From positions 128,001 through 192,000 of the IMG/VR virus record IMGVR_UViG_3300021979_000003: DNA of 64,000 nucleotides. The stretch is one strand, 5' to 3'. Both the position numbers and the translations under genes were made by a program. The stretch's first letter is position 1, and every line of letters begins with the position of its first letter. Under the pieces are notes generated by a model that saw only the letters and a program-made list of their open reading frames with translations, was not told where the DNA came from and did no database searches. Source of the DNA: a virus. Lineage: Duplodnaviria > Caudoviricetes. Shown one piece after another: positions 10,387 through 44,739 of this stretch.

Positions 10387-10394
10387 TATAAATA
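10387..10394 (+). promoter_or_regulatory. T4-type late promoter
   Basis: Exact TATAAATA 30 nt before the giant gene's ATG, within a GCTATA...TATAGC inverted repeat. Confidence 0.85.
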
Positions 10395-16400: not shown

Positions 16401-19400
16401 TAAGACTTTCTGGTGATGTTAATGAAGATTATGTGTATGGTATATATGACGGTGGATACAACTATACATTTAAATTAACTAAAATTGATCCAAACGATAA
16501 CGTTTATATCATGTTAAGCTTCGATGAAGAAATGTATACAACATTTGAATCATCCGAAGATTTGACTTCACTAAATCAATTGCAGTTTGTGCGTTGGGTT
16601 CCAAGTCGAATCAATATGTTCTATCACCAGTTCTTTGATGATGTACAAGATACTATTGATACTTTTATTGGTAATATTGCACACTCTCCAAGTGATGGTT
16701 ATAGACTATACATTGATATAACCAACAGCCCTGTTTCTTACAAGGCAGAAGTTATGAATAGTAACCCTTATGAATACTGGTCTTTTGATAGTAATTCATA
16801 TGCAGGTATGAATGGCAATAACTTTAGTCAACAGGATTCATCATCTGTACCGTCTGACGTTATCAACAACTATAATTCACTGGTGAGTGATGGAACTACG
16901 TTTAGTCCAGCTAGTGATGAATGGCCTAATATGATTTGGTCAGATTTAGGCTCAACCACAGAAAACACTAAAACAATCGAGTTTTGGTTTGAATATGATG
17001 AGACTGTTAGATTTACCGAAGATATGTCCCATAGCTATCCGATTGCTGCGATAGTTCAGAGAGATACTACTGGTGAAGTTGTCTCTACCCATATTGGCGT
17101 ATATCCAGATACGGATAATGAAACTAACGATTATCGTGTGATTCATACAATTGATGGAAACCTAGAATACAGTTCTTCTATACCTCTAGAAAACGGTATG
17201 AACCATTGTGTACTTACTGTAGATAATGGTCCTTCTGGTAATACAATTAAAACTGTAATTAATGGTACAGTAGTTGATGAGGTAAGTTCAATTAACGGTA
17301 TTGTACAGAACACCACCCATAGTGTATTTGTCGCTTGTGTTGATAATCATCAAAGCGGCGATGACATGCCAATGGTTGATGAACTAGCATTCTATGAAAG
17401 CTCACTTTCTATTATCGATATACAATCGCACTATCGCTCTGGTATTGCAGGACTGGTAGCGTCGAACGAAGAAAAATGGGGAGTATTTGAATATAACTCT
17501 GGTTCTTGGTCTGTCGTTTATGAAGAGAAACCTGTTATTGATACTGACATGATCCATGAGTGTTTAATATACAACACTGAAGATAGCTCATATATCGACA
17601 ATGTTAAGATACATGATCCAGTTAAAGGATACTTTGCTGGTGCACCTATTCAAGACATCGATTACATCACTGAGTACGATCCTGTAGACTACAATTCTGG
17701 TACAGAAAATTACAGTGCGTGGGGTAGCAACAAAGTAGGTACTGTATGGTGGGATACATCTACCATGAGATACCTAGAGTATGAAAACGGTACTAGTGAA
17801 GACAGAATAAACTTCTGGGGTACATTATTCCCACAGAGTACTATAGATGTATATGAGTGGAGACAATCTACTGTAGTTCCTTCTGAATACGAAGGAACTG
17901 GTACACCATACACAACTGAAGAATATGTGTTTGAAGATGTTTATGATGAAGAAACTAATGAAACTACGAGATTCTACTTCTTCTGGGTTAAGAACACCAG
18001 TGGTATTCCTGAGAATACAAATAGAACTAGTAGCATCGTTAATATTTCAAACTCAATTAGGTATCCTGATAACAATGGTGTTCCTTATATCAATTTTATT
18101 AATAATGAATGCATTCTACTAAACGATAACACAAATGTTATGGTTCAGAATGACTTTGTACTTCAGATTGAATATGAAACCAATAAAGATGATATTGACA
18201 CACATACTCAATGGACTCTAGTATCTGAAGATGAAAGAGAAGATGAAATTCCAGATTTCCTATTCAACAAAATGATTGATAGCATTCTTGGATACACTGA
18301 AGAAGATGTGAACGGTATTGTACATCAAATACCTGACGTGAACCTTTCTGAGTCAAAGAAATATGGAAACCTACAATTCCCTCGTCAAACATGGTTTATT
18401 AATACTAAAGAGGCACGTAGAAACTTCTTTGAAGCTATCAACGAAGCTTTAGAGGGTATTAACATTTGGGATGTCGAACTATTCTGGGAAGAATTAAATG
18501 AAGATGTCCTACGTGATACGAAATACTTTGGACTAATTGATTGGTATAAAGAAGGCTATGACCCGTTAACTATAGTTTCCAACTTGGTTAATAAACGTGT
18601 TGATATTCTAACAACACCACTAAATGATGGTGAGTATATCAAAGTGAACGAATCTGTAGGAAGAATGCCTTCAGTATACGAAAGTGGATTTACTATCTAT
18701 CAGTATCATTCTGATATTAATAGTTATGAAAAAGTAGGACAATCTCGTGCAGAATTGAAGTTCAAAGAAGCCTTCTATGTTGATGATATAAGTCAAGAAG
18801 ATGCTGCTAAAATACGCGATATTCTAGGAATTGTTTTCGAAACGTTCTTGGGTAAACAACGTCCAGAGTTTATTAATAAGATTTTCTACACTATGGTTAG
18901 ATATGTAATCAGTGAACAGCCAACAAATGATTGGGTGTTCCCAACGACTTACATAAACATCAACCAAGAGTCTAGAAGCTTAATTAAGAAGCGTGTTTAT
19001 CAGGATGACAAAGAAGAAGAAATTATTGGATATGTTACTGAAGCAAAACCTTTCCATACTAAGCTAAGGGAAATTAATAAAATTGCTACAGGTGATATTG
19101 AATACAATGGTTTCTATGTTACTGATTTTGATAAACCCCCGTATCTAACTGATTCGAGAGAAATTATCAATATTCAAGAAGAAACTATTGATACTATTCC
19201 GTACAAGAAAGACTTGTACTACAACCTAAGCATTCGAAATGCAAAACCTGTTGAATACTGGCCGATGAATGTGAAGTATTCACCAAGCACTATCGAAGGT
19301 GAATTTGGCGTTAACTTCTATAACAGAGATAGTGATTTCGTTGCTAAACCTAGTGGTATCTGTTTCAACAACGGTTTCGAACTGCTTGGACCATATAGCA

Positions 19401-21787
19401 CTGATCCTATTACACTTGAATCCAGTAAGATAACGATGGAAGCTTGGTTATATGGTCATGACATTGATATTCTAAACGGTCAGAGTTCATATGAAGTGAT
19501 GTCTATAAACGTCACTAACAGCGATAATCCATCCGATAGCGTGGTTTATAAAGTAGTGATGCTAGACAACGCAGGCACAGTAGAATATCGCGTACAGGCG
19601 TTCAGAGGCAACGTACCGTACCTTGATGAGGTTGTTACCCTGACACCAAACGTCATGAACTACTTCGTTTTTGGTATTGATAATTCATCAACTAATACTA
19701 AGTTGAATCTATCAATAAACCGTGATAACTATGTTACATATAACTTAGGAAACTTTATCAATGTTAATGGATTCTATGATGTATCACTTAATATAGGTAG
19801 TACTGATGTTCATTATTTCTATGATGAATTCGCACTTTATGATAGACCGCTTGATATTCAAACGGTAGAAGACCATTACGATTATGCAAGTGAGTCTGTA
19901 CCTCAAAGAGTGTTTAAGCTTGAAAACTACCATGATCCTGATAGTACAAACGTGTTTATCGAAGGCGTTCTTCTCCCGAAGAATGAGTACAGTATCATTA
20001 ACAATGAACTACGATTAGTTAATGAGCCACCACGTGCTTACAGACATGTTTCTAACGTGGTTGTTAAATCAACTAATATTGCCGATGATAGAATATTGTC
20101 TGAATATGATCAGGCACGTGGCTACTATGGTGTGAACAAAAACGATTTAAATGAATGGATGATGACTGTTAACCAGAAGCGTACACACGCCATGTTTGAC
20201 CGTATTTCTGTCTTACCTTCTCTTCCATTAGAAGACTTGGTGACACGCTATAATGATGTGTTAAGTTCAGAAACACCACTAGAAGAATTCAGTAACCAGT
20301 CTTACAAGTTCAAGGGATTCAATGGACGTAAGTTTACTGAAACTGATCGTATAGTGACAAACATGTACTTTGATGATCTAACTGTGTTAGTTAGCGAGTC
20401 GTATGTTGAAACAGTAAACGCTCCTATAAAGAAGAACTTCAACATTGGTGATTCTTTCTCTGAGGATAATATTGCTGTATTTGTTAACGATGATCTTGTA
20501 GAACCAAGACATTACAACACTTCAATCGATTCTGGTACATCTGAAATCACCGTATCAATGTTATTTGATGTGAAAAAGAATAGTAAGTTTACGGTTAGAC
20601 CTAAAGACAAATATGAAGACCTTATGTTCAAGGTCGCACATCACCGTGGAGTGGGTATACCGTTCAGAAATCTTGATGAAATAAAAGAAATAGGTTTCAA
20701 GGTAGACGAAAATACTTATCCAGTTAAAATTGATACCAATGGAGAGTTAATTCTTGACTCTGATTATATCGAAATGGTTGAAGACACAGGTCATGATGTT
20801 AGCTTAGACGTTCTATATTCTGAGTTCGATGATGTGACCGCAGATATTAAAAATGCTGATAAGTTCCTTCGAAATGCTGAAGAAGCTATACCCGAAGAAA
20901 GAACTGACTTGAACTTAAAAGAAGCACTTGTGTTTACGTTCAAGACTAACTTGAAGATAATTCAGAGAGGATATGAAACAGGATCAGGCTTTGATATATT
21001 TGACACAGTAAGCTTTACAGCGTCTGGTGGAGAAACCGAATACCCAATCACACTAGGATCAATACCTAAAGAACAAATCCTTGTATTGGTTAATGAAGAC
21101 GAATGGGTTATGGACGGTGAATATACCAACGATCAGCATCATTATAGTGTTGAGCCTGATAAAATTGTTTTCAATAAGCAGTTGAGAAATAATGACAAGG
21201 TTATTATTACTGATAGGTATTCTGCGTTTGATCAATATCGCGGTACGCAAATGTTTATTCATAAAAATATTCAAGCGGGCGGTTACGATGGCGACATGGT
21301 TATGCCTGACTTCATGAATGATAGTGAAGATCGCCGTGAATTTATCATCTATACACAGGATGGTAGAGTACATGCGTTTGAATGTCCAGAATCTGAGGCA
21401 ATAACAGTTAATGGTTCGGTAACATATGCACAAGAATCTATCGAACTAACAGGCAATGTTTCTGATAGCATGAAACTTGCTAATAAAGATCAAGGTAAAA
21501 TTGCCGTGGTTTATGGCGAGGAAATAGATGGTTCAGGAAAGCTAGTTAGTAGTCGATGTGAATTCATCCACTATACACAAGCAGATGGCAATGTTATTGA
21601 AGGAATAAAGCGTGGCCTGTTTGGTAAAAATCCAAAGGATTTCGATAGCAATAAATATAATATAAAGGTATATCCATTAACAATTGATGATAGCCTACCA
21701 AGTTTCACAATAACAGAGCCTTATCTAGGAGTTAGAGGAAAAGCATCTTATCCTAAATATGGTCATATAATGAGTGGTAAAGATTAA
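10424..21787 (+). CDS. Giant virion structural protein, 3787 aa, probably baseplate-associated, with chitin-binding-type and LamG-like modules
   Basis: Uninterrupted 11.4-kb ORF with SD GGAG and a late promoter; W/Y-rich ChtBD3-like repeats at about 14480-15010; two D-E-x-A-x-Y...L...I..HY LamG-like ends. Confidence 0.75.
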   Translation: MADKNIKNFLPSVFRTNKIKNFMDSTSETLFSDNNSENKSYFVGRRVGGLYDPLSDYYAQEINKIRENYQLEPSLVIRDKDTSEVNDVLFYEDLLRSLENSGSQVSDHSRLFASTKFSYAPPIDMDMFINYSDYYWYPEGGFEIRVDANPSDLEGRIAATVRIIETSEPLEVSTGMHLELNDNNIYIVEGVGTYIRLIEFDPDNNKPFKIDRVYNVTQTSNDVIERFPAEYITMERGANDKNPWSRNNSWYHKDVINKIIGQSRFLAERSRRAQRPIICFRRDLELYNYGNHFDFVKSIDTTLSTSMDGANIESGDKVIINGDSNIYQYDGSAFLSVAQANHDDKVTIYDGNNKADEFKWDSIEDDWVLCQRKLEVNQPILFNIYDSNDENATLISDEFKYPNSSFDGCEIFRYARSSTSLEDPVLGFGIRYKAFRESSDIVFENAMSDTCTYEIGGETRTIQNGFYKVNNPNNIERNNIIKFTIGKDYTTGNPVVYINGRQQRNIVLKANTQYRLDYTDSSTTVRGWYENYSPIEILDETGSQVIRPTHADSSKNDVLYTFNETSAGGYVYKTSYYEGRIYVVNETVEDFYFENSWIESEDTNITLKLEKLVTDENDLEVKLSYTPRNDNAIRVTYNGDVLGKSSYYFSVDSVFITDIEGEVEKGDYIEVFYTTNDPVSNESEEIQMVHPSLNNNPNNDDIEDFAFSEVFDQFRSIIRNQPFLKGTALTDNNFRDTIKDGSLGTSILKHSAPMVPLMFANLSDEADVVEAIISAKDYYNNFKNSLIVESDEFNRNNDITNENVRDIFDDIVASINSGRRKTDPYAYSYMFATYNKYTNVTFDASGVASEYLDIDIDSNELYIYTQDGLRLIDIDYRIENDSSTLTTTLVPLTFSIEDIIESRYYQEMEPSFCAPTPMKFGLDRPKRPEIIKDETYLSDKYFIIGHDGSKFLAYSSEDQINSGELDGRDLLVLELEKRIYNGIRPEFKDESKFIINLSDVTPSYYKELSVTKQFVEDVEFRFFSKWCNDNNINYTANDTFDINNELTYNIPRFETDNGVVISGHWKSIYQYFYGTVTPNKTPWEMLEFKIKPSWWESEYGTDYSSNNTQMWSDIEQGIVRQGVRENLAFDAYKSSTNRLRKDGLMQILPVDSNGDLRTVSDIGLVDSSTFNYYQIKREWSFGEYGPVEQAWRNSSDYSFVKQALFYISKPLQYITEAWDTELSFNLPVGNVHKPSEMGVHSFVENSTNFNYVAGVSQWLYSYLQVKNLSGERLLRDRFYESDIQLSHKAGGFIDSTNINISTETFNPRSDSTVTNIPTEDISVLLHESKDIKTETYSGVLVERVDADKTFYNFNEGQIYDINEVVYNTNDKNYYKLVSDHKSYPDFEPFTLYVTGRVVKYANRLYVCLEDYRSDDQEFPNNSSKWKLRGFVANDWALLTGKPSAKTTYFKVYGYDLYDSGFRTIPASDTSRDIEITVPTVDSKQVPVVNWEPNKQFYTGQYVRINDGNLFACRRDHVSSEVFDTQLWVRSDKLPFTNMASVNVKTEGSNKVSYVPYGTVFRTTREVSEFLMAYGRYLESRGWKFDSFDSSRNKFKNWKLSVEEFIRWAYENQSAGSVIGLSPISEDIKFSASHGVPSITRNKINTPVTLIGPKGNIIDPKNAEYNRSGGIYHVMAGEPVFFCKLSIKEYEHIITVNNRTVFNDVIYDPELGIRKDRLKIRTLKTKGWDGRLRAEGFIVTGDKILPNFETSVSDIKSISDKDVISIQDIYNRLKYHNFGYEQRSYLEGLSMDAKAQISFYEGFVRQKGTSEAFQRLLRSSELDVSGDMKINEEWAFKQGTFGSVETDQRVEILFDNTDMKSTPQAVYLEYKQEFENKKATDVYVDIEDRDKWITKPKSLVDGNIFVETKFNNVKKYPTAGYVRWSDADFKAFTLKGLGASIRESNRSIVEGMRAWIAKDSSEQYGWNVYHSSFVNVTVDEIITLGRNSVSSAVLRLSGDVNEDYVYGIYDGGYNYTFKLTKIDPNDNVYIMLSFDEEMYTTFESSEDLTSLNQLQFVRWVPSRINMFYHQFFDDVQDTIDTFIGNIAHSPSDGYRLYIDITNSPVSYKAEVMNSNPYEYWSFDSNSYAGMNGNNFSQQDSSSVPSDVINNYNSLVSDGTTFSPASDEWPNMIWSDLGSTTENTKTIEFWFEYDETVRFTEDMSHSYPIAAIVQRDTTGEVVSTHIGVYPDTDNETNDYRVIHTIDGNLEYSSSIPLENGMNHCVLTVDNGPSGNTIKTVINGTVVDEVSSINGIVQNTTHSVFVACVDNHQSGDDMPMVDELAFYESSLSIIDIQSHYRSGIAGLVASNEEKWGVFEYNSGSWSVVYEEKPVIDTDMIHECLIYNTEDSSYIDNVKIHDPVKGYFAGAPIQDIDYITEYDPVDYNSGTENYSAWGSNKVGTVWWDTSTMRYLEYENGTSEDRINFWGTLFPQSTIDVYEWRQSTVVPSEYEGTGTPYTTEEYVFEDVYDEETNETTRFYFFWVKNTSGIPENTNRTSSIVNISNSIRYPDNNGVPYINFINNECILLNDNTNVMVQNDFVLQIEYETNKDDIDTHTQWTLVSEDEREDEIPDFLFNKMIDSILGYTEEDVNGIVHQIPDVNLSESKKYGNLQFPRQTWFINTKEARRNFFEAINEALEGINIWDVELFWEELNEDVLRDTKYFGLIDWYKEGYDPLTIVSNLVNKRVDILTTPLNDGEYIKVNESVGRMPSVYESGFTIYQYHSDINSYEKVGQSRAELKFKEAFYVDDISQEDAAKIRDILGIVFETFLGKQRPEFINKIFYTMVRYVISEQPTNDWVFPTTYININQESRSLIKKRVYQDDKEEEIIGYVTEAKPFHTKLREINKIATGDIEYNGFYVTDFDKPPYLTDSREIINIQEETIDTIPYKKDLYYNLSIRNAKPVEYWPMNVKYSPSTIEGEFGVNFYNRDSDFVAKPSGICFNNGFELLGPYSTDPITLESSKITMEAWLYGHDIDILNGQSSYEVMSINVTNSDNPSDSVVYKVVMLDNAGTVEYRVQAFRGNVPYLDEVVTLTPNVMNYFVFGIDNSSTNTKLNLSINRDNYVTYNLGNFINVNGFYDVSLNIGSTDVHYFYDEFALYDRPLDIQTVEDHYDYASESVPQRVFKLENYHDPDSTNVFIEGVLLPKNEYSIINNELRLVNEPPRAYRHVSNVVVKSTNIADDRILSEYDQARGYYGVNKNDLNEWMMTVNQKRTHAMFDRISVLPSLPLEDLVTRYNDVLSSETPLEEFSNQSYKFKGFNGRKFTETDRIVTNMYFDDLTVLVSESYVETVNAPIKKNFNIGDSFSEDNIAVFVNDDLVEPRHYNTSIDSGTSEITVSMLFDVKKNSKFTVRPKDKYEDLMFKVAHHRGVGIPFRNLDEIKEIGFKVDENTYPVKIDTNGELILDSDYIEMVEDTGHDVSLDVLYSEFDDVTADIKNADKFLRNAEEAIPEERTDLNLKEALVFTFKTNLKIIQRGYETGSGFDIFDTVSFTASGGETEYPITLGSIPKEQILVLVNEDEWVMDGEYTNDQHHYSVEPDKIVFNKQLRNNDKVIITDRYSAFDQYRGTQMFIHKNIQAGGYDGDMVMPDFMNDSEDRREFIIYTQDGRVHAFECPESEAITVNGSVTYAQESIELTGNVSDSMKLANKDQGKIAVVYGEEIDGSGKLVSSRCEFIHYTQADGNVIEGIKRGLFGKNPKDFDSNKYNIKVYPLTIDDSLPSFTITEPYLGVRGKASYPKYGHIMSGKD

Positions 21788-25940: not shown

Positions 25941-26231
25941 TTACCTTTGGTCCAAAAACAACATAAGCTTACGTCTTATATCATTTACGTCTACATCAAC
26001 AAACCATTCACCCTCTGCACGTTGTTCGCTGAAACAATTATGTAAATACTTTTCAGCTTTATTTGCCTCGGTTCTTTCCTCTACCCACTCGACATTTATT
26101 TTATGTGGGTTTCCGGTTTGCAATGACTTAATCCTTTTATATAAATTATCATTTTTACAAACACCAATCTTATGAAACTTTTTGTCTTGGCAACTTAATA
26201 TATAAAGAACATTATATGTAAATTTTCTCAA
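25941..26231 (-). CDS. T5orf172/GIY-YIG-superfamily domain protein
   Basis: YIL...KIG...RIKSLQTGNP...E..LH..F...R..GEWF. Confidence 0.85.
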   Translation of the reverse strand: MRKFTYNVLYILSCQDKKFHKIGVCKNDNLYKRIKSLQTGNPHKINVEWVEERTEANKAEKYLHNCFSEQRAEGEWFVDVDVNDIRRKLMLFLDQR

Positions 26232-27028
26232 AACCTTTCTCCATCGTTATATCTATTTATAACATTTTGAAATAGCTCGATTGGAGTTTTTCTTGACTTA
26301 GCTATGATTTTCTTTTTGTTAAGCAACAAGTAGCTTTTGGAAACTACCATAATTTCATTATTAGTCTTTGATAAACTGGTAGGAAGTTCGCCCATGTTAT
26401 CGGCAACTTCATATGTTGAGAGAAGCTTAGTAATTTGCTTTTTAATTTCGTCAAAAATACTTTTAGTTAAATCTTTAGAATCTTCTTTACTAAACCCTTT
26501 CTTTATAAAGGCTCTGTATAGATCATTAGATATTTCAGATATAGATTTCTCGTTACTCTCCAATACCTTGAAAACAATATCAGCAACCTTATTTTCATCA
26601 TACTTGGTGTCTATACGATGCATTACAATATCAATTATTTCTTTACGCCATGTCATGTACCAGTCATAAATTTCTTCAGAGTAACACATCTTATAATTAC
26701 CAGTGGGTAATAATATAAAAGGTGACCCGTAAGACGATGAACCGTTTAGGGTAGTATATATGGCATCTTTTCTAAAATTTATTCCATAGTTTTCATTGAA
26801 AAAGTCATCAAGATAATTACCAAAATAATTATGTGCACCTTCCTGTGGTGATTTATGATCTTCGGTGACAACGATAAAATCAGTATCTAAAGAACCACTG
26901 TTATGATGTAGGACTGTGTTGGACTTAACACAGTCTTCCATGTACTTAAGCATTTCAGGGTACTTATCGATATGAAATAAAAGTATATCTATAAAGTTCG
27001 ATGGTTCGTATATTTCATCTATTTTCAT
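26228..27028 (-). CDS. Hypothetical (possibly virion) protein, 266 aa
   Basis: ATGA overlap with the next gene; N-terminus MKIDEI. Confidence 0.65.
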   Translation of the reverse strand: MKIDEIYEPSNFIDILLFHIDKYPEMLKYMEDCVKSNTVLHHNSGSLDTDFIVVTEDHKSPQEGAHNYFGNYLDDFFNENYGINFRKDAIYTTLNGSSSYGSPFILLPTGNYKMCYSEEIYDWYMTWRKEIIDIVMHRIDTKYDENKVADIVFKVLESNEKSISEISNDLYRAFIKKGFSKEDSKDLTKSIFDEIKKQITKLLSTYEVADNMGELPTSLSKTNNEIMVVSKSYLLLNKKKIIAKSRKTPIELFQNVINRYNDGERF

Positions 27029-27828: not shown

Positions 27829-28860
27829 TTAATCCTCCATTGGACAACGTTTGTTTAGGTATCTTGTTACTGATGACTTAGAAGAATGTATCGCATAACG
27901 GTTTGGTGCGTACTCTGGTACACTCCCTACAGTTCCATGACCGCACATACCACCTAATAGATAAATGCCAGTAGAAACGCTGTCAGAGCCACTTAAGGAC
28001 TTAATATTCTTCTTCTTCATTGAATCGTAACCTTTATAAACTGTGTTCTCTCTGAACCAGTTTTCTTTTCTGTATTTGCAGCACATACCTTTATCTTTTA
28101 ACTTCTTATTTAGTTCGCGCAGTGACTTATTAGCACTCGCTTTAAGTTTTTGTCTGGCTTGTGCCTGAGACTTAGCATTAGTAACGAGAACGTTTTTAAA
28201 GTTTTTGTGTGGTACTTTTTCAGACTTGTTGTTATCGTAGAGTGATAGTTCGACAACCATGTAATATTGGTCAGGGTCCATCTTGCGACCTTCGTTAAGC
28301 TCTTCCGCACCATAGTTCGCTTCGATCATTTCAAGAACACACTCAGAGACAGATTTTGAATCTTTTGTGTTTCTATCATAAAAGTTATCTATTTGATCCT
28401 TGACTACTTCGTCCATGTCTAGGATTTCACGAATAAATCCCGCACCTTTGTATTGCTCATTGCGATCAAGGGTACGCTGTAGTGCAGATTTAAAGTACTG
28501 GTGGTTTGCCTTAAGCTTTTCATTAGGTTCTATTACTTTCTTTTCGAATTCCTTCAACTCTTTTAGAGTTTCAGTTTCGTTAGAGTGTAGTAGTTTACTA
28601 ATACCCATCATAGACGGTCTGTCTGGGTCAGTTTTCTTAGATGCTTTGTCGTAGGCGAGAATGGTTCTTATTGTTGGTATAATATCGAAATATTTCCCAA
28701 TGAACTCTTTGATTTCCTTTTCCACCACAAGCTTTGGGCGTTTATTTTCTATACGTTCATGAATGTATTGGGCCTCATTCACCATTTTTCCGTATAGATT
28801 TTCAATGCTTTCATCCAGAATATATTTTTCTTTTTGTTTGTTTATTTGATGTAAGCGCAT
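27829..28860 (-). CDS. Hypothetical, probably late/virion protein, 343 aa
   Basis: Start reassigned to MRLHQIN at 28860 (SD AAGGA, late promoter upstream). Confidence 0.7.
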   Translation of the reverse strand: MRLHQINKQKEKYILDESIENLYGKMVNEAQYIHERIENKRPKLVVEKEIKEFIGKYFDIIPTIRTILAYDKASKKTDPDRPSMMGISKLLHSNETETLKELKEFEKKVIEPNEKLKANHQYFKSALQRTLDRNEQYKGAGFIREILDMDEVVKDQIDNFYDRNTKDSKSVSECVLEMIEANYGAEELNEGRKMDPDQYYMVVELSLYDNNKSEKVPHKNFKNVLVTNAKSQAQARQKLKASANKSLRELNKKLKDKGMCCKYRKENWFRENTVYKGYDSMKKKNIKSLSGSDSVSTGIYLLGGMCGHGTVGSVPEYAPNRYAIHSSKSSVTRYLNKRCPMED

Positions 28861-30678: not shown

Positions 30679-30706
30679 ATAATCTCATTGATTTCTATTT
30701 TGTCAA
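30679..30706 (-). promoter_or_regulatory. Sigma70-like promoter overlapping the rIIA 3' end
   Basis: TTGACA-N16-(TGa)GATTAT; the -10 element is imperfect. Confidence 0.45.
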
Positions 30707-33385
30707 GTAGGAATTTAAAATATTTCTTACTCCTGCTTGATCTACAAGGTGATTGATCAATTGATCAACAACCTCTTCAGACTCAATTCTCACTGATGAC
30801 ATATTTATAGAACGGATCATAGCTCTAGCAAGAGGTCTGTCCAGAAGCTTTTTAAACATTTCATCAGCAATGTCTATGTTTTCTATATTAGACGAAATAT
30901 CAGATACGTCAATCATTACTTTTTCAAAATGATCACTAGCGGTGCTAGAAATATTGCTTTCAATCTCAAGGAACCCATGTGTTCTAAGATGATGCAACAA
31001 AGTAGTACAACAATTGTACGTTTGGTTATTCACTGCAATGGCATCACGGCCATTTTTGTCTGTTTCATCTATATTGCTGTTTAACTTATCTTTGAGAAGG
31101 TCGATGTTTTCTCTGATAGAAGTAACAGTTACAGGTTCCTGAACCTTCAAACTAGTGGTTTTGATCCTGTCAATAATATAGTCATTGAAAGAATATATAT
31201 TGTCATTATTGATATAATCAACAATTTTGTCGTATTTATTTTCGTCACATACCATAATAATAGTATCTTTAGGCAAAAGCTTAGTAATATCTGCGTCAGA
31301 TATATTTTTAGTGTGCAGAGTCTGTCCAATAGAATCAGTAACGGTTATAACGCCACTGAATTCTTTCCATGTATCGTTATCAAAGAATTTTACTTTAAAA
31401 TCAATACTCACGTTTTTACCATCCAATGTAGTAGCATTGATTGATGCTGACTTATCATTCAATTTTAGAACATAAACAGAGTCAACACTTTCAGTACACT
31501 CCAATAGTACATCAGACATTACAGTCCTTTTTGTAGCAGGCTGTATTTCATAGTCATAGCTACCTTGGGTCATCTTATTGAAACGATAAATCCCGCCAAT
31601 TCGTTTATGCACTTTATTTCTTTTCTGATCTTTACGATCTTCTTTAATCAATTCGATAGTTTCCGAATATTTTTCTTGAAGCTCACTAACTTTGACGACG
31701 GTTCTAACACCTTCGTCAATGAGGGTCTTATAGACGTGTTCATTACCTTCATATTCGATAAGGTATGCTTTATCGAATGTAAGCTCATCATCATAATGAA
31801 TCAAGCCACAAGGAAGCTTAAAGGATTTCTTCATATCTTTAAAAATAAAAACACAGTTAGATGAACCAAGATATCCCTTGAGTGCACGTTTAAAGTTAGA
31901 CAAAGAATCGTAAAAATACCTTACCTTGTCTGCTTCTTCTGATTTTTCAGCGTTACTAACCTGACGGTTAATAGCACCTACGTCATAAAGATGTTTGAGC
32001 TTCTTTTCACTCTCAGATTCGATGGTGTTAAAGATACGGTCGAATTGTGGAATGAAACAGAAGCCATACGCATCAAGGATTTTACCCGCCAAGTCACGAT
32101 CAATACCAGATGTAAGCTCTGCAATATCAAATGCTTCTTCAGGCTTTTTAATCTTAAAGATGTCGATGAGCGTTTGAAACTCATTCTTATATCGGTAAGT
32201 TTTCGGCAACACCTTTTTATTAATAAGTGTTTCAATGTGACATGAAAGGGTCGGTGAGTAGGTTTGAGTTACCCCACAGTCAATAATCTGTTTCATCACA
32301 TAATTAAGCTTGATAAGGTTTGTGATCGAGGATGATGTGACCAGTGAAGACACAAAGTCCCTAACTTTATCAAAAAGCTCAGTGTATGTGCTTAGAGCTT
32401 CGTCATTGATCTGCTCTTCTTCAGCATATTCCATATCAATACGATCACGTGAACGATTGACTGAAAGCTTTTTGTTAAGGCTGCTCACATCAATATTGAA
32501 GTATGGCTTATGCTTACTTGCAGTAATACAATAGTTAGAAAGGCCCCAACCTTCAAACGGATAGATGATATTTTTGTATTTAACAGAGAACGCCTTGTCG
32601 TTAATCTTATTCTGTCTGTCCAGCATGTTGTAATCAATGAAGTAAAGATTTTTGTAATTGAATACACCGTCTAGGACACTTTTTAATTGTTCAATGAAAA
32701 GTGTATTAGTGCCTTGTATATCAATAGTAGTCGCGTTTTGATTATGGACATAAAAAGGAACCAACACTTTGACAAGCTCTTCAGTATCACCATCCATAAC
32801 ATTGATATTTGAAGTGAGGTTATATGCGAATGGTAGAGAAACTTCAGTACCGCTTTCTTCGTCGGTTTCCTTTGAATCAATCAAGTCATAAGATGGAATT
32901 CCTTGTTCGGAAAGGTACATGATGTACATATAAGCAACACCATCATAAATGGTCTTAACCAGATAGTAATCAATTTCATAAGGCCAAAAATGATCAGCCG
33001 TTGCAGAAGTTGCGATACGAATATTACGAATATTCTTTTGTTCAAGATCATAAAGAACACCATAAGGTGCTTTAGAACCAATGCCGAACTCACCGTCACG
33101 GTCTGTGATTTCGTCTTCGTCTGTGGCACGTTTGGTACTTTGATACATAGACCCATAAATATCGGCAATGATAGAAGGACTCATACCAGTCCCAAAATCA
33201 CGAACAATGGTTGAATCGTAGTTGAAGGTTACAATTACTGGCTTAGTAGCTTTGTTGTCTTTATTAGCATCTACGGCGTTAGCGATGATTTCACGAATAG
33301 ACGCTTTCTTTGGGTCTGCGTAGATACTCTTTACAACGGTTTCGTATACTTCCCGGTTAAGTTCTGGGATTTTGACTGAAGGCAT
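30695..33385 (-). CDS. rIIA: rIIA-like protein with N-terminal GHKL ATPase
   Basis: IREIIANAVDA, VRDFGTGMS, YQSTKR and GEFGIGSKAPY. Confidence 0.8.
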   Translation of the reverse strand: MPSVKIPELNREVYETVVKSIYADPKKASIREIIANAVDANKDNKATKPVIVTFNYDSTIVRDFGTGMSPSIIADIYGSMYQSTKRATDEDEITDRDGEFGIGSKAPYGVLYDLEQKNIRNIRIATSATADHFWPYEIDYYLVKTIYDGVAYMYIMYLSEQGIPSYDLIDSKETDEESGTEVSLPFAYNLTSNINVMDGDTEELVKVLVPFYVHNQNATTIDIQGTNTLFIEQLKSVLDGVFNYKNLYFIDYNMLDRQNKINDKAFSVKYKNIIYPFEGWGLSNYCITASKHKPYFNIDVSSLNKKLSVNRSRDRIDMEYAEEEQINDEALSTYTELFDKVRDFVSSLVTSSSITNLIKLNYVMKQIIDCGVTQTYSPTLSCHIETLINKKVLPKTYRYKNEFQTLIDIFKIKKPEEAFDIAELTSGIDRDLAGKILDAYGFCFIPQFDRIFNTIESESEKKLKHLYDVGAINRQVSNAEKSEEADKVRYFYDSLSNFKRALKGYLGSSNCVFIFKDMKKSFKLPCGLIHYDDELTFDKAYLIEYEGNEHVYKTLIDEGVRTVVKVSELQEKYSETIELIKEDRKDQKRNKVHKRIGGIYRFNKMTQGSYDYEIQPATKRTVMSDVLLECTESVDSVYVLKLNDKSASINATTLDGKNVSIDFKVKFFDNDTWKEFSGVITVTDSIGQTLHTKNISDADITKLLPKDTIIMVCDENKYDKIVDYINNDNIYSFNDYIIDRIKTTSLKVQEPVTVTSIRENIDLLKDKLNSNIDETDKNGRDAIAVNNQTYNCCTTLLHHLRTHGFLEIESNISSTASDHFEKVMIDVSDISSNIENIDIADEMFKKLLDRPLARAMIRSINMSSVRIESEEVVDQLINHLVDQAGVRNILNSYLTK

Positions 33386-33406: not shown

Positions 33407-33434
33407 TTGACGAAATTTCTATTTGAGATACTAT
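33407..33434 (+). promoter_or_regulatory. Sigma70-like early promoter
   Basis: TTGACG-N16-TACTAT. Confidence 0.65.
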
Positions 33435-33473
33435 ACCACTCTAATCATTGAAAATCAAATTGTGGAGAACAAA

Positions 33474-33857
33474 ATGAGTAAGAAAAAATATGGCCTCATG
33501 ATTTACGTTGTGCACCCTCGTGTATTGTCCAAGAAAGCTGAAAAGAAGTGGGACGTGTACGAGGAAGTTTATATTCGTAACGGTATTCGTAAAAACCTTC
33601 TAGAACAATCTACTATTGTATTAGACTGTGCCAATATGGAAGTTTACAAGAACCGTTCTGAACGTAAAGATGACTTTTACACTATTGTATCATACCTAGC
33701 TAAGAGCCACCAACAGGTAGCTGAATTTAAAGAAGTGTACGACACCTTTATGACACAGATGGAGAAAGTAGAAGAGGAAATGCGTAAAGCCGCAGAAGAG
33801 CCTACTACGGAATCTACTGATACTACCGAAGACGAAGAAGGCGAAGGCAAAGCCTAA
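33474..33857 (+). CDS. Hypothetical protein with acidic tail
   Basis: Start reassigned to MSKKKY (SD GGAG). Confidence 0.7.
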   Translation: MSKKKYGLMIYVVHPRVLSKKAEKKWDVYEEVYIRNGIRKNLLEQSTIVLDCANMEVYKNRSERKDDFYTIVSYLAKSHQQVAEFKEVYDTFMTQMEKVEEEMRKAAEEPTTESTDTTEDEEGEGKA

Positions 33858-33886
33858 ATAGAACTGTGAGAATGGTGTAAAAAATG

Positions 33887-33914
33887 TTGACGTTCTCACA
33901 ATTCATGATAAGTT
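33887..33914 (+). promoter_or_regulatory. Sigma70-like early promoter
   Basis: TTGACG-N16-(TGa)TAAGTT, with the -35 flanked by a TGTGAGAA/TTCTCACA inverted repeat. Confidence 0.6.
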
Positions 33915-33956
33915 ATAATTTCATTGTTAAATATAATAATAAGAGGAAAATGTGAA

Positions 33957-34340
33957 ATGACTAGTAAAGTTATTATTCGTATCGGTGAGAAATCTGATCA
34001 AATTGAAAAAGAAAATATTTTCGAACGTGGGAACTACCGTTTCTGTAAGCAACTTTCTGTAGTATTTGTACAAGCTGGTATTTATTACCTTATCGTTACC
34101 GATGAAGAAATGATTAACAGTCTGTATGATGCAACCGCAGAAGCAGTAGAAGACGGTGACTATTCAGAAGCCGATGAAATCGTAGAAGGAATGATTAAGA
34201 ATTACATTGCACAAAACTTCGATGACTTTAATAGTCGTGTTGAGAAAGCAGTTAAAACAGCACATGGAATTGGTGTTAAGAAGATGTCTTCCAAGACATC
34301 GAAAAAGCCTAAGATTCAAAAGAGACGAATCACAGCATAA
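33957..34340 (+). CDS. Hypothetical protein with basic C-terminus
   Basis: Start reassigned to MTSKV (SD GAGG). Confidence 0.7.
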   Translation: MTSKVIIRIGEKSDQIEKENIFERGNYRFCKQLSVVFVQAGIYYLIVTDEEMINSLYDATAEAVEDGDYSEADEIVEGMIKNYIAQNFDDFNSRVEKAVKTAHGIGVKKMSSKTSKKPKIQKRRITA

Positions 34341-34344
34341 TATT

Positions 34345-34367
34345 AAGCGCCTACGGGCGCTTTTTTT
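34345..34367 (+). terminator. Intrinsic terminator
   Basis: AAGCGCC-TACG-GGCGC-TTTTTTT with a C(UACG)G tetraloop. Confidence 0.9.
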
Positions 34368-34368
34368 G

Positions 34369-34376
34369 TATAAATA
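34369..34376 (+). promoter_or_regulatory. T4-type late promoter
   Basis: Exact TATAAATA immediately after the terminator, 22 nt before the ATG. Confidence 0.85.
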
Positions 34377-34398
34377 TTCTTAAACGGGAGAATATTGT

Positions 34399-34947
34399 AT
34401 GAAAATTCTAGAAAATGAAGCACATCCTTACGAAGAAGGTATGAATGCATTTAGTGAAGGTAAGGGATTGGAAGCTTGTGATTATAGACCTTACTCACTA
34501 GGCGAAGATGAATGGATTCGCGGTTGGCGTTATGCCAAGCAGGAATCTGTTATGGAAGATTCAGACCTTTGTGAAGATGAAGTTTATGAAAATACTGATG
34601 ATTTTTATCTAAACTATGGTTGGATGCCTCTTGACGAAGATAAGTACGGATACTATGATGGTTCTAGAGTTAAGTTAGATAATCCTCGTTACAGTGGGGA
34701 TGATGAAGATAAACGCTTTGTTGTTTACGTAGACAGCGAAAAGAAAACATCTGATGGTAAGGTGAAAGCTAAAAAGATTACTTTTGGTTCAGAAAAAGGT
34801 TCCGACTTACGTGTCAATAAAGACGACGAAGAGGCTAGGAAAAATTTCGTAGCCAGACATAATTGCAAATCAGCGAATGACAAGAAAACCGCTAGGTACT
34901 GGTCTTGTCGTGCACCATTAAGTAAAGGCGATGGAAAGTATTGGTAA
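34399..34947 (+). CDS. Two-domain protein: RMF-like N-terminus and a basic C-terminal domain with RHNC...YWSCR
   Basis: G..A...G...E.C.Y...W..GWR.A pattern shared with ribosome modulation factor; SD GGAG. Confidence 0.6.
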   Translation: MKILENEAHPYEEGMNAFSEGKGLEACDYRPYSLGEDEWIRGWRYAKQESVMEDSDLCEDEVYENTDDFYLNYGWMPLDEDKYGYYDGSRVKLDNPRYSGDDEDKRFVVYVDSEKKTSDGKVKAKKITFGSEKGSDLRVNKDDEEARKNFVARHNCKSANDKKTARYWSCRAPLSKGDGKYW

Positions 34948-35630
34948 TGACTGTATTTGAAACACTGGAAAGCAAATTCAAAACCGAAAGAATTGAACCA
35001 ATGTCATCTGTATTTGTAAAAGATATCCCAGAAGATATCTTTTATTACATTAAGGATTCAGTTCAGAATATTACAGATACAATGAAAATGTATCAAAAAA
35101 ATAATAATCCCGTATATGAAACTTTGGGCCTAACATACAATCCAACATTAAAAATACCGGGACATGAACAATATAGTAGAAATATAAGCTTGGGTGATAA
35201 CGGTAGGGATGACACTCATTCGTTTGTACATCCACTTGCTAACTCCGAGTTTTTATATGACATATGTGAATACACACCGGTAAGAGCCAAGATAACTCGT
35301 ATGGAAGGGCGTTATAAGCAATCTGAATGGCATTATGATGAGCCTTTGAACGAGTGTATTAAAGTCATTATACCAATAGAAACAGACCCACAATGCCTTT
35401 TCCAGATTGATGACAAGAAACCAGTCAACTTGGAAATAGGACGTGCGTACTTCTTTGACTCCATATTCCATCACCGCTATTTGTATGGTAATTGTACCAA
35501 GCCCATTACTCATCTTGTGTTTGGACTTTCTACCAAATATCAATACGACTATTCAAAAGGCGAATGGTATAATCCAGACAGAAATATATCAGATATAACT
35601 CAGGTCATTGACAGTTCAGTAGTCTTTTGA
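34941..35630 (+). CDS. 2OG-Fe(II) dioxygenase, aspartyl/asparaginyl beta-hydroxylase-like
   Basis: WHYD (HxD), IIPIET, GRAYFFD..FHH, and ITHLVF. Confidence 0.75.
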   Translation: MVMTVFETLESKFKTERIEPMSSVFVKDIPEDIFYYIKDSVQNITDTMKMYQKNNNPVYETLGLTYNPTLKIPGHEQYSRNISLGDNGRDDTHSFVHPLANSEFLYDICEYTPVRAKITRMEGRYKQSEWHYDEPLNECIKVIIPIETDPQCLFQIDDKKPVNLEIGRAYFFDSIFHHRYLYGNCTKPITHLVFGLSTKYQYDYSKGEWYNPDRNISDITQVIDSSVVF

Positions 35631-36253: not shown

Positions 36254-36829
36254 ATGGAGTTTGTGGATATGAATGATATAAAAATAATTTCAAAAAATGA
36301 ACTTTCCGTAAGTGATATTAAAACAGTTATTCGAGTTATTAATGACGCTTCTGGAAAGCAACTTATTACTATTTCCAAAGATAAGCCCTTGGCTAAAAAA
36401 TACACACTGGATGACGGTTATACTGTCTACTGCTTTGCTTTTGATGAAGCCATTGATGGTGATGAAGCTGATAGTATTGTTGGTGGTTTATACAATACTC
36501 TTACTTTCGACTTTGTTGCTGAAATAAATTCAGATGTTGTAGACTATGAAGATGACATCGAAGAGTCAATTGAGGAATCCGATCCAATCAAACATGCAAG
36601 ATGGGTACAAGAACAAGTAGACGAGGGTTGGTCTTATGGTCTTGAGTTTGATGAATCTAATAAAAAGAATCCTTATATCAGACCTTATCACCAGTTAACT
36701 AAAACTCAAAAGAAAATGATCGATAAAAGCAAGTCAAAGCTTGGTCATTATGGTCTATATTTCCCATACATTTCTGGTAATAATAACGATGATTCAGGAG
36801 CCGGTGTTGGAGGCGATGGCGGCGAATGA
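36254..36829 (+). CDS. RyR-domain protein
   Basis: HARW....EGWSYG..D...K.NP.I.PY..L matches the RyR repeat; CATAAATA at 36234-36241 upstream. Confidence 0.8.
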   Translation: MEFVDMNDIKIISKNELSVSDIKTVIRVINDASGKQLITISKDKPLAKKYTLDDGYTVYCFAFDEAIDGDEADSIVGGLYNTLTFDFVAEINSDVVDYEDDIEESIEESDPIKHARWVQEQVDEGWSYGLEFDESNKKNPYIRPYHQLTKTQKKMIDKSKSKLGHYGLYFPYISGNNNDDSGAGVGGDGGE

Positions 36830-37821
36830 GTTACGACTTCGACTATGATTCTGAATCAGGACTAACGCCTTGGCCTATGGTCTGGACAGTGGCACCCGCT
36901 CAATATAATTGGGAAGGGACACTTGGTGATGCGTTGAACTTTAGCGTAGAAGCGATTCCCGATCCTGCCTATCCTGCCGCTTGGGATGAGCATTACACTA
37001 GCTCTGGTGATACTGGTGGTGGTCTGGGAGGCGGTACTGTATCTGCCCCCCCACTACCGCCACAACCGGTCATTCAGGAATACATTTATGAATCATCTTC
37101 GACATTAGAGCCTGATTACTTCTCAATTACAAATGCGGACGGTCTTGTTATAAATGATGCCGATACTGAGCTATTCTTTCCTTATGCAAGGATTGTTTAT
37201 TTTAAAAACGATGTCAAAAAACAAGCACAATTCCCTCAAGAAGTAATTGATGATGACTACGATTACGTATCTGCGTTGGTTCCAGATGACAGAGAATTTA
37301 TTGTAAAAAAATCAAACTTAAGAGCAGTATCCACCTCAAAGACTGATCTAACTGGAAGTTTCCAATTTAAAATTAATAATGATTGGAGTAAGTCGAAGCT
37401 TACATTAGAAGCAATGGCGGAAAGATCAAAAGAATACTTCGATGATTTAGTTGGTGACAGTACACAACAACCACCACAAGGACAAAATTCAGATTCGCCT
37501 ACAGAGACAACATTAGAGCCTAGTCTACCAGACACCTCTTCATCCGATGAAACATTCGAAGAAGAAAACCAACAGACATATGATGAGTTATTCAGAGAGG
37601 GTGATAGAGACAAGATAAATAATATAATAAGTGATGAAGAAGAGTTTTACAATAATCTCAAGAACGAAACTCAAACTACATCACAAGTAATAGATGACGA
37701 AGAACTAGGAACCGAAGAATCACCAATCGACAAGGCCATACGTGATGGAAACATTGATGAGCTTATGAATGAACATGGTTATTCTTATAATGAGGTTCTA
37801 GATTTAATTAGGGGTATATGA
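36826..37821 (+). CDS. Acidic hypothetical protein preceding PAAR
   Basis: ATGA coupling on both sides; D/E-rich. Confidence 0.7.
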   Translation: MSYDFDYDSESGLTPWPMVWTVAPAQYNWEGTLGDALNFSVEAIPDPAYPAAWDEHYTSSGDTGGGLGGGTVSAPPLPPQPVIQEYIYESSSTLEPDYFSITNADGLVINDADTELFFPYARIVYFKNDVKKQAQFPQEVIDDDYDYVSALVPDDREFIVKKSNLRAVSTSKTDLTGSFQFKINNDWSKSKLTLEAMAERSKEYFDDLVGDSTQQPPQGQNSDSPTETTLEPSLPDTSSSDETFEEENQQTYDELFREGDRDKINNIISDEEEFYNNLKNETQTTSQVIDDEELGTEESPIDKAIRDGNIDELMNEHGYSYNEVLDLIRGI

Positions 37822-38120
37822 TGTCCAATCCAACAGCACAACTATCATCACCTACAACAGGTCACGGCTGTTGGCCTTCTACCACAATTTGCGAAGCAGC
37901 AGAGACTGTGATAGCTGAAGGGCTACCTGTGGCATGTCTAGGTCATGCCGCGATACCACATGTGTGTGTTGTTCTTCCATTTCCAGTACATGGTTTAGTA
38001 GTGGCAGAAGGTTCAGAGACTGTCATAGTCGAGGGTGTTTCAGCGGCTAGGATTGGCGACAGTATGTCATGTGGAGACATAATTGCTTCAGGTTCACCAA
38101 CTGTTATAACAGGAGACTAA
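37818..38120 (+). CDS. PAAR-repeat spike tip protein (gp5.4-like)
   Basis: HGC, PVACLGH, PHVC and SAARIGD..SCG..IASGSPTV. Confidence 0.92.
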   Translation: MMSNPTAQLSSPTTGHGCWPSTTICEAAETVIAEGLPVACLGHAAIPHVCVVLPFPVHGLVVAEGSETVIVEGVSAARIGDSMSCGDIIASGSPTVITGD

Positions 38121-38128
38121 CAAAAGAA

Positions 38129-39232
38129 ATGCGTTTACATGAATTGAATAATAATAAAAATACCATATACTTTATGATGGTTTATGCTAATCCCCCAACG
38201 TATGGTTATAAGCTAGCTTATGAAAAGCTTCTAAAGGTTTCTAAAGATGCAAACCATGTCGTCTTTATCAACCCTATGGTTGATAGTGAAATTAATCCTT
38301 TGAGCTTTAAAAAGAATCTAAGCTACAACAAAGCACTGTTTCCTTCTGTTAACTTCAATGAGGCGGGAAATATTAAAACACCATTAGAAGCTTTAAAGTA
38401 CCTTTCTAATGAATACGATATTATATACTTGGTCACAAAAGATGAAAATATAGAAGAGTACCGCCGATATACAAAGTATGCTGAAAATTGGGGTGTATAT
38501 GATTTTGACGTAATTGGCCTTGGTGATAGCAAAAGTGACGACACTAAAGGAAGAACAAATAAGCTGGCTAGAAAATATGTTTTAGATAATAATTACCAAG
38601 ACTTTAAAAATACAATTCCAACTGATAATGAGCGCTTAATGTCGAGCCTATACCTTGACTTAAGAAAAGCTATGCTTACAGACTCAAAGAAAAAGAACGA
38701 TGAGATTACTGAACAAGTAAACAAGGTTATTGAGACAATCAGAGAAAAGAACTCTGGATTTTCCGTAATAGAAGAATATTTTAGTACTGATCAAGAGGGC
38801 AATAGATATATCATGCTAAATGAAATAAACAACTTCTTTAAGAATATTAAATTAGTTGTATCAAATAAGTATAAGGACTATTCAATCGCAAAAGATAAAG
38901 ACAAGAATTATGTTATCTTTATTAATTCTTCATTGAAAAGTATCGATAAAAAATTAACTGAAGATGCTGATCTTTTTGAAAAGACTATTAGAAATACTCA
39001 GCGTTTAGATGAAACAACTGCCGGTGCAATTGCCAGTTCAAATGCTGTTCTCGGGCAACCAATCAAACGTATACCTAATTCAGATGAGTCGGCATTTGAG
39101 TTTGTTAAAAAGATAAAGTATGACAGAAGCTGTCGTGACAAACTAAATGCATCTATGGGTGAGTTTATTAATAGAAACGGTTATATCGATCAAAACGTTA
39201 TTAAAAAGATTAAAGAAATACTGGAAAAGTAA
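38129..39232 (+). CDS. Degenerate HIGH-superfamily nucleotidyltransferase (phage cytidyltransferase-like)
   Basis: ANPPTYGY in place of FNPPTxGH; overall layout matches the family; start reassigned to MRLHEL. Confidence 0.6.
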   Translation: MRLHELNNNKNTIYFMMVYANPPTYGYKLAYEKLLKVSKDANHVVFINPMVDSEINPLSFKKNLSYNKALFPSVNFNEAGNIKTPLEALKYLSNEYDIIYLVTKDENIEEYRRYTKYAENWGVYDFDVIGLGDSKSDDTKGRTNKLARKYVLDNNYQDFKNTIPTDNERLMSSLYLDLRKAMLTDSKKKNDEITEQVNKVIETIREKNSGFSVIEEYFSTDQEGNRYIMLNEINNFFKNIKLVVSNKYKDYSIAKDKDKNYVIFINSSLKSIDKKLTEDADLFEKTIRNTQRLDETTAGAIASSNAVLGQPIKRIPNSDESAFEFVKKIKYDRSCRDKLNASMGEFINRNGYIDQNVIKKIKEILEK

Positions 39233-44713: not shown

Positions 44714-44739
44714 AATGCTCCTATATAGGAGCATTTTTT
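44714..44739 (+). terminator. Perfect 22-bp palindrome plus T-run that contains the next gene's SD
   Basis: AATGCTCC-TATATA-GGAGCATT-TTTT-ATG. Confidence 0.7.

Follow-up and report, generated by a model that had tools for sequence, protein, structure and literature searches.

A late phage gene that joins an RMF-fold domain to a Tlr6F/DUF5754-like domain and may encode a capsid-packaged protein

Does a phage protein that carries the fold of the ribosome modulation factor (RMF) act on ribosomes as RMF does, or does the fold serve another purpose? This question is raised by a gene at positions 34399-34947 (plus strand) of a 64,000-nucleotide (nt) stretch, called the window below, which covers positions 128,001-192,000 of the IMG/VR virus record IMGVR_UViG_3300021979_000003 (full record 239 kb). 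The gene starts with ATG and encodes a protein of 182 amino acids (aa) plus stop. The original prediction, made from the letters alone, described an RMF-like domain fused to a basic Cys/Trp domain and proposed a late-expressed translation modulator, possibly delivered with the virion. As described below, the fold and the late expression were well supported, RMF-like action appears unlikely, and the basic domain was assigned to the viral Tlr6F/DUF5754 family, whose relatives suggested that the protein may be packaged in the capsid.

The RMF/CrpP-fold domain occupies residues 10-51 (34426-34551, plus strand) and consists of two helices (residues 10-19 and 34-51), with the Cys-x-Tyr loop and the W..GW helix of the RMF fold and the signature residues G14, A17, C27, Y29, W39, G42 and W43. 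The Pfam RMF model PF04957 matched residues 10-48 over profile positions 12-50 of 53 (E=0.0015, 19 bits, cut-off 27.9), and the best-scoring curated model was the NCBIfam Rmf/CrpP superfamily NF041886 (Rmf_CrpP_fam; 21.5 bits, E=1.2e-4, cut-off 28). The NCBIfam RMF equivalog PRK14563 gave 16.1 bits (cut-off 40) and the NCBIfam phage Rmf-like model gave 13.7 bits. In a six-frame scan of the 239-kb genome, this domain was the sole RMF match (E=8.5e-5). Every single RMF score is weak, the domain being tiny; the resemblance nevertheless goes beyond chance, because 7/11 relatives matched PF04957 (best 3e-6) and because a profile built from 9 orthologous N-terminal domains, compared with 177,635 PDB sequences, returned RMF chains as its top three matches (E about 0.07-0.1).

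Structural comparison led to the same assignment. The AlphaFold2 model of the whole protein had a mean predicted confidence (pLDDT) of 84.6, with values of 88-95 in blocks over the RMF-like domain, and the best Foldseek match in the PDB was 9iot_y, the RMF of an E. coli hibernating ribosome (prob 0.90, template-modeling (TM) score by target 0.66). Vibrio RMF (2jrm) was superimposed with a root-mean-square deviation (rmsd) of 1.8 over 50 columns, and identity to the solved RMFs amounted to 23-28% over 50-53 columns. VIA-align, which is independent of Foldseek, placed RMF second (4v8g_AV, Z 4.6, rmsd 2.2 over 48 aligned residues). The identity of about 11 residues over ~40 aa counted by eye in the original prediction agrees with these values, and the profile and structure searches that it had proposed as a check both returned RMF (Pfam and the ortholog profile, Foldseek and VIA-align). 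We therefore regard the assignment of residues 10-51 to the RMF/CrpP fold as sound. When residues 1-56 were used to query the Atlas with a language model, no usable match was obtained. In a phmmer search of the whole protein against PDB sequences, the top places were taken by BamA barrel segments (E about 0.05-0.2) through an alignment of the linker (YLNYGW...DGSRV); no fold search agreed with this alignment, and it was taken as chance.

The remainder of the protein defines its wider kinship. The C-terminal domain (residues 81-182; 34639-34944, plus strand) is predicted to contain four beta strands and two helices and has a net charge of +7 and an isoelectric point (pI) of 9.4-9.5, with RHNC at residues 153-156 and YWSCR at residues 167-171. 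An acidic linker (residues 52-80; 34552-34638, plus strand; net charge -11) precedes it, so that the succession of an acidic linker and a basic domain with RHNC and YWSCR had been correctly read in the original prediction. Over 16 fusion orthologs the pI of the C-terminal domain is 9.4-11.1, and it reaches 11.5 in stand-alone forms. V91, V109, G130, R153, H154, C156, W168 and C170 were invariant in a 73-sequence alignment; in both larger alignments R153, C156, W168 and C170 remained invariant, and H154, Y167, S169 and the last Trp were nearly so. A search without a word index matched 2364 clusters at E<=1e-3, the match lying nearly always at the C-terminus of proteins of 120-700 aa. The only match of the C-terminal domain itself to a known family was a weak one to PF19058 (DUF5754; E=0.25, 11.8 bits, cut-off 27.4). 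PF19058 was, however, matched by 11/90 relatives of the C-terminal domain (best 3.1e-8) and by 13/149 full-length relatives (best 1.2e-7), and through these relatives sequence comparison places the domain in the Tlr6F/DUF5754 family. PF19058 corresponds to the Tlr6F family (PMC12220804, PMC4642659), which is described as a protein that almost every polinton-like virus conserves, along with several virophages, many giant viruses and some phages, and that resembles no known domain (PMC4642659). In the ESM Atlas, the clusters among the matches listed were 100% viral, and the C-terminal domain there follows RMF, DUF5872, DUF5824, DUF3721, PAP2 or cytidylyltransferase domains. A fold search with the model of the C-terminal domain (pLDDT 83) gave no convincing PDB match (Foldseek best E 0.26; no VIA-align chain with Z>=2), a result that does not by itself establish a new fold.

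Full-length orthologs of the 182-aa protein are 47-99% identical to it, and all 16 are fusions of 169-201 aa, the RMF-like domain never standing alone in this clade. A tblastn search with the protein returned distant matches only, all to the C-terminal domain, and megablast with the locus found no match among 50,697 phage records. No second copy of the C-terminal domain and no second RMF-like domain was found in the 239-kb record.

Beyond this clade, the partners of the Tlr6F-like domain hinted at a role in the capsid. It occurs joined to XkdF-type prohead proteases, either at their N-terminus or at their C-terminus. Roseobacter phage CRP-6 gp55 (L004:3974-4663, plus strand) has a Tlr6F-like N-terminus, identified by tblastn with 38.5% identity to the C-terminal domain studied here, and an XkdF prohead protease C-terminus (Pfam S78_2, E=7e-18); its gene belongs to the structural module, with tail genes on one side and the capsid gene on the other. 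Vibrio phage ICP1 ORF125/Gp125 (L013:7709-8545, minus strand) has the reverse order, with an XkdF-type protease (Pfam S78_2) at residues 36-160 and a Tlr6F-like domain at residues 183-259 that was recognized by hhalign with a probability of 95.4% and is degenerate, its His and Cys residues being lost. This gene is flanked by the portal-side genes and by the gene of the major head protein, and its product is known as a putative capsid maturation protease (PMC8096241, PMC9040626); no description of its Tlr6F-like domain was found in the literature searched. A third XkdF-named match was found in the viral structure library BFVD. Other N-terminal domains fused to the Tlr6F-like domain include ART-PolyVal, HicA, cytidylyltransferase and DUF5824, the last two being combined in a 650-aa protein of Methylophilales phage Melnitz-3 (L008:1827-3779, plus strand) that starts with MKKFSEIIEA and ends in a Tlr6F-like C-terminus. 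Cultured phages with a protein that ends in a Tlr6F-like domain include Pelagibacter phage HTVC008M, Methylophilales phage Melnitz, Flavobacterium phage immuto and Tenacibaculum phage pT24. Stand-alone, very basic forms of 79 aa are encoded by Roseobacter phage CRP-738 and by Pelagibacter phages HTVC106P and Kolga.

The position of the gene supports late expression. Upstream, an intrinsic terminator (34345-34362, plus strand; a 7-bp stem with 5 GC pairs and a loop of 4, followed by a T run) ends a two-gene unit at 33423-34340, and a T4-type late promoter, TATAAATA, follows at 34369-34376 (plus strand), 22 nt before the ATG. Direct reading of the sequence further revealed a Shine-Dalgarno-like GGGAGA at 34386-34391 (plus strand), 8 nt upstream of the ATG. 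The 239-kb genome contains 35 copies of TATAAATA, 21 of which sit 8-50 nt upstream of a same-strand gene start, compared with 0.9 expected (p about 5e-25). It is this position relative to gene starts alone that is significant, as the raw count within the window was not enriched (11 copies versus 9.2 expected). The arrangement of hairpin and TATAAATA recurs 5' of the orthologs in loci L011 and L010 (67% and 54% identity), with different hairpin stem sequences, and the genes downstream of TATAAATA copies include that of a giant protein of 3787 aa along with others that are probably structural. The open reading frame (ORF) of the giant protein (10424-21787, plus strand) stands directly behind a TATAAATA copy at 10387-10394. 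Sigma-70-type promoters near the gene were disregarded, their matches being no commoner than in shuffled sequences.

Downstream, the stop codon of the gene overlaps the next ATG (TAATG), and no convincing plus-strand terminator was found before 44714-44735; the gene thus opens a long late operon as its first cistron rather than forming a unit of its own. The operon continues with genes for a hydroxylase-like protein, a HAD-family protein, an RyR-domain protein, a 331-aa ORF, a PAAR protein, a cytidylyltransferase-like protein, a 121-aa ORF, a gp6-like baseplate wedge protein and a gp15-like tail completion protein. Accordingly, the earlier statement that the gene is insulated by a terminator and has its own late promoter stood for the upstream side, where both elements were found, and failed for the downstream side, which is open. 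Because of the positional enrichment of TATAAATA, the conserved pair of terminator and promoter, and the operon with PAAR, gp6-like wedge and gp15-like proteins, we conclude that TATAAATA is a real promoter element in this genome and that late expression, as originally predicted, is well founded.

Short motifs at the domain boundaries suggested a further possible link to capsid assembly. The linker, which contains DDFYLNYGW, is bounded by VME (residues 51-53) and LDE (residues 78-80), both of the form [LIVM]-x-E. In the 16-member RMF-fusion clade, this motif recurs at residues 5, 53 and 80, which are the boundaries between leader and RMF fold, between RMF fold and linker, and between linker and C-terminal domain, respectively, and it does not occur within the C-terminal domain. 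In the family at large, [LIVM]-x-E ends exactly 5 residues before a conserved Gly of the C-terminal domain in 66/87 (76%) fused members, compared with about 5% at other positions, and the stand-alone 79-aa forms start at that boundary point (MAKYQGR). Prohead proteases of the T4 family and of giant phages all cleave after Glu in such motifs (PMC5694885). The linker segment DDFYLNYGW itself (34594-34620, residues 66-74) is acidic-aromatic, with a predicted helical structure. Many fused Tlr6F-like proteins retain it irrespective of the N-terminal domain that they carry, about 5-15 residues ahead of the boundary [LIVM]-x-E, and the stand-alone forms lack it.

At the N-terminus, MKILE (34399-34413, plus strand) may represent a partial form of a capsid-targeting-like leader, M-[KR]-x-x-[DEQN]-hydrophobic. 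This leader motif was present in 44/161 family members, in comparison with 16/273 genes called in this genome and, at internal Met residues, a rate of about 1% (Fisher p=9e-10). Five family members begin with sequences such as MKTFQEYLKEA, and these starts, like that of the Melnitz-3 protein, resemble the ten-residue capsid-targeting sequence of T4. Targeting by the T4 sequence involves its positions 4 and 7, and its cleavage involves positions 8 and 10 (PMC9026906). The 16 genes of this genome with the leader motif have starts such as MKINDILNEA, MKIRDILKED and MKVLQLFEST (examples at 26228-27028, 27829-28860, 94935-96248 and 105305-106216, all on the minus strand), and an exact TATAAATA lies <=60 nt upstream of 4 of them; they may constitute a set of capsid-targeted proteins.

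The genome also encodes the protease that such processing would require: a Peptidase_S77 protein of the T4 gp21 family (PF03420, 86.6 bits) was found at genome position 127105-127536, just upstream of the window. From the protease gene, the protease fusions, the leader enrichment, the boundary [LIVM]-x-E motif and the cargo-like N-terminal domains, we infer that the 182-aa protein is a late, capsid-packaged protein processed by the gp21-like prohead protease of the phage, a reading that we favor while placing it just short of probable. The protein would be built into the prohead in the manner of a T4 internal protein, and the protease would cut after Glu at the [LIVM]-x-E motifs close to residues 5, 53 and 80. 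The carrier would be the basic Tlr6F-like domain, which would remain associated with the packaged DNA or the inside of the capsid; the RMF-fold domain would represent one cargo among many that can replace each other. The T4 internal proteins are diverse basic proteins with only a targeting sequence in common (PMC3012670, PMC9026906), and T4 Alt is processed by gp21 (PMC9026906), to which the ART-PolyVal fusion of the present family can be likened. The possibility of virion delivery raised in the original prediction thus gained circumstantial support from the partial leader, the boundary motifs, the gp21-like protease and the fusion of the C-terminal domain to prohead proteases; the domain architecture, the late promoter, the conserved motifs and the protease gene are established, whereas packaging, cleavage and any delivery into the host are deduced.

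More broadly, and with less assurance, we suggest that Tlr6F/DUF5754 might be a capsid-interior module for encapsidation or DNA binding. T4-like aquatic phages might use it as a common carrier of packaged and possibly injected effectors (RMF-fold, ADP-ribosyltransferase, HicA, cytidylyltransferase and PAP2 domains) that are freed by the prohead protease at the boundary [LIVM]-x-E, and other phages might place the prohead protease inside the shell with it. This generalization seems to us possible and on balance doubtful.

Several observations weigh against packaging. MKILEN fits the leader motif at positions 1-5 only, since position 6 is N, and the strict motif is thus not matched; the boundary site LDE lies 8, not 5, residues before the conserved Gly. 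In an acidic, glutamate-rich N-terminal half, [LIVM]-x-E is expected fairly often, and it also recurs inside the RMF-like fold at residues 34-36; moreover, the motif counts come from related orthologs and are not independent samples. The stand-alone Tlr6F-like genes of Kolga and HTVC106P lie among small non-structural genes and beside ribonucleotide reductase, lysis or small early-type genes. The family also occurs in viruses without a T4-type protease, namely polinton-like viruses, giant viruses and an archaeal spindle virus (PMC4642659), and in particles of the polinton-like virus PgVV, Tlr6F peptides were detected only below the significance threshold (10.1101/2022.07.28.501842). Finally, the case for packaging is drawn from gene and protein sequences.

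Three other explanations were weighed against packaging. The one put forward originally holds that the protein is a working mimic of RMF: it would attach to the 30S subunit close to the anti-Shine-Dalgarno sequence and would shut down or reshape host translation, either late or after injection with the DNA. It draws on the fold and the signature residues of the N-terminal domain and on the sister proteins with HicA and ART-PolyVal domains, which act on host RNA or proteins, so that a translation effector would not be out of place. Furthermore, RMF is known from gammaproteobacteria, the class of the host of Salicola phage SCTP-2, the closest isolate. RMF acts through 30S binding and 100S dimer formation, however, and the features that this action needs are missing here. 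The curated RMF cut-offs were all missed, by PF04957 (19 versus 27.9 bits) as well as by the equivalog, and the best model was that of the generic Rmf/CrpP superfamily rather than RMF itself. The core aligned to E. coli RMF residues 11-52 has a net charge of -4 (-6 to +1 over the 16 orthologs), in contrast to +4 in E. coli, MKILENE replaces the basic N-terminal tail of RMF before the fold, and the pI of residues 1-50 is 4.6. In addition, the RMF fold is a common phage building block: the BFVD library contains many RMF-fold phage proteins of 44-60 aa (TM up to 0.88, rmsd 0.8-1.7), and the phages that carry them infect Caulobacter, Gluconobacter, Burkholderia, Delftia, Serratia and Xanthomonas. 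As such mini-proteins occur in phages of varied hosts, the fold alone is no marker of ribosome hibernation. A literature search on CrpP with RMF, phage-encoded RMF and PF04957 found nothing relevant. Since the domain does not have the basic, RNA-binding character of RMF, one would not expect it to bind the 30S subunit as RMF does, and we consider a translation modulator acting like RMF unlikely.

A stronger competitor is a late protein that remains in the cytoplasm, unpackaged, and whose Tlr6F-like domain binds nucleic acid in replication, packaging or late transcription. In such a protein the RMF fold and the acidic linker would be an added regulatory or protein-binding part that perhaps shields the basic domain, and [LIVM]-x-E would cap the domain structurally instead of marking a cleavage site. 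The neighbors of the stand-alone Kolga and HTVC106P genes and the spread of the Tlr6F family over unrelated capsids without a T4-type protease (PMC4642659), described above as points against packaging, speak for this explanation, as does the charge complementarity of the acidic N-terminal and basic C-terminal halves, which is seen in every ortholog. It does not readily account for the fusions to prohead proteases in both orientations, the enrichment of capsid-targeting-like leaders in the family, or the [LIVM]-x-E motif, which lies outside the stand-alone region and yet is kept in 76% of the fused forms; we regard it as possible, and on the whole improbable. The least likely explanation, in our estimate a very improbable one, is that the 182-aa protein is the substrate of the translationally coupled hydroxylase-like protein encoded at 34947-35630 (plus strand; 227 aa from the ATG at 34947), the pair forming a modified peptide or protein system. 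The TAATG overlap links the two genes, homologous partner genes with a conserved HxD...H overlap the ortholog ends in L010 and L011, and the partner resembles viral aspartyl/asparaginyl hydroxylase-type cupins, its language-model look-alikes being viral Asp_Arg_Hydrox (PF05118) clusters (score 0.97). Against this, no alignment-based family match, in Pfam or elsewhere, was obtained for the partner, the pairing was not demonstrated for a more distant ortholog (L015, E=1.0), other Tlr6F-like genes have no such hydroxylase-like neighbor, and adjacency alone is weak evidence.

The genetic surroundings are those of a T4-type phage. The 239-kb record has an estimated completeness of 54%, and T4-type genes around the locus encode rIIA-like (30695-33385, minus strand), gp6-like baseplate wedge, gp15-like tail completion and gp21-family prohead protease proteins; a PAAR gene is also present. 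The gp15-like protein is 55% identical to that of SCTP-2 (440 kb), and the host genome of the gene is a jumbo myovirus related to this phage. In the late operon, the RyR-domain protein (36254-36829, plus strand; Pfam E=3.8e-10) and the PAAR protein (37818-38120, plus strand; E=1.3e-12) are also encoded in the syntenic locus L011, and the cytidylyltransferase-like gene (38069-39232) has no Tlr6F-like end.

The RMF resemblance taken by itself is modest news: many phages already have annotated RMF-fold mini-proteins, and what RMF needs for its known action is missing from this copy. The C-terminal domain is of wider interest, since Tlr6F is among the few genes common to polinton-like viruses, virophages, giant viruses and tailed phages. 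The protease fusions in two orientations, the T4-like leaders and the protease-type boundary motif make it a testable idea that Tlr6F works inside the capsid; if this is true, the proteins that end in a Tlr6F-like domain would be a catalogue of phage-packaged effectors, with the RMF-fold domain as one such cargo.

The protein can be compared with several known systems. With RMF (PF04957; PDB 4V8G, 6H4N, 9IOT, 2JRM) it shares the two-helix fold and the G..A...G, C-x-Y and W..GW patterns, whereas RMF is a stand-alone, basic protein of ~55-65 aa with a basic tail, and here the domain scores below the thresholds and is part of a 182-aa fusion with an acidic core, expressed from a phage late promoter. 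The Rmf/CrpP mini-proteins of phages and mobile elements (NF041886, NF041887) likewise have the same fold and stand alone, unlike the present domain, which is joined to a Tlr6F-like domain by the acidic linker. Tlr6F/DUF5754 (PF19058) is similarly virus-only, basic and without a known fold, in agreement with Yutin et al. 2015 (PMC4642659), but the phage form exceeds the 49-position model in length, adds an RHNC...YWSC...W tail, and forms the C-terminus of a multi-domain protein. ICP1 Gp125 and CRP-6 gp55 contain the same basic Tlr6F-like domain, with the difference that their partner domain is the protease itself and that the ICP1 copy has lost the His and Cys residues. The T4 internal proteins IPI-III and Alt, which combine a capsid-targeting sequence with processing by gp21, are also expressed late and have a basic mature part; further common points are the gp21-family protease that the genome encodes, [LI]-x-E motifs, an M-K-x-x-acidic-hydrophobic leader like that of many members of this family, and highly diverse cargo including an ADP-ribosyltransferase (PMC9026906). 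They differ in having no sequence homology to the present protein and no conserved C-terminal domain.

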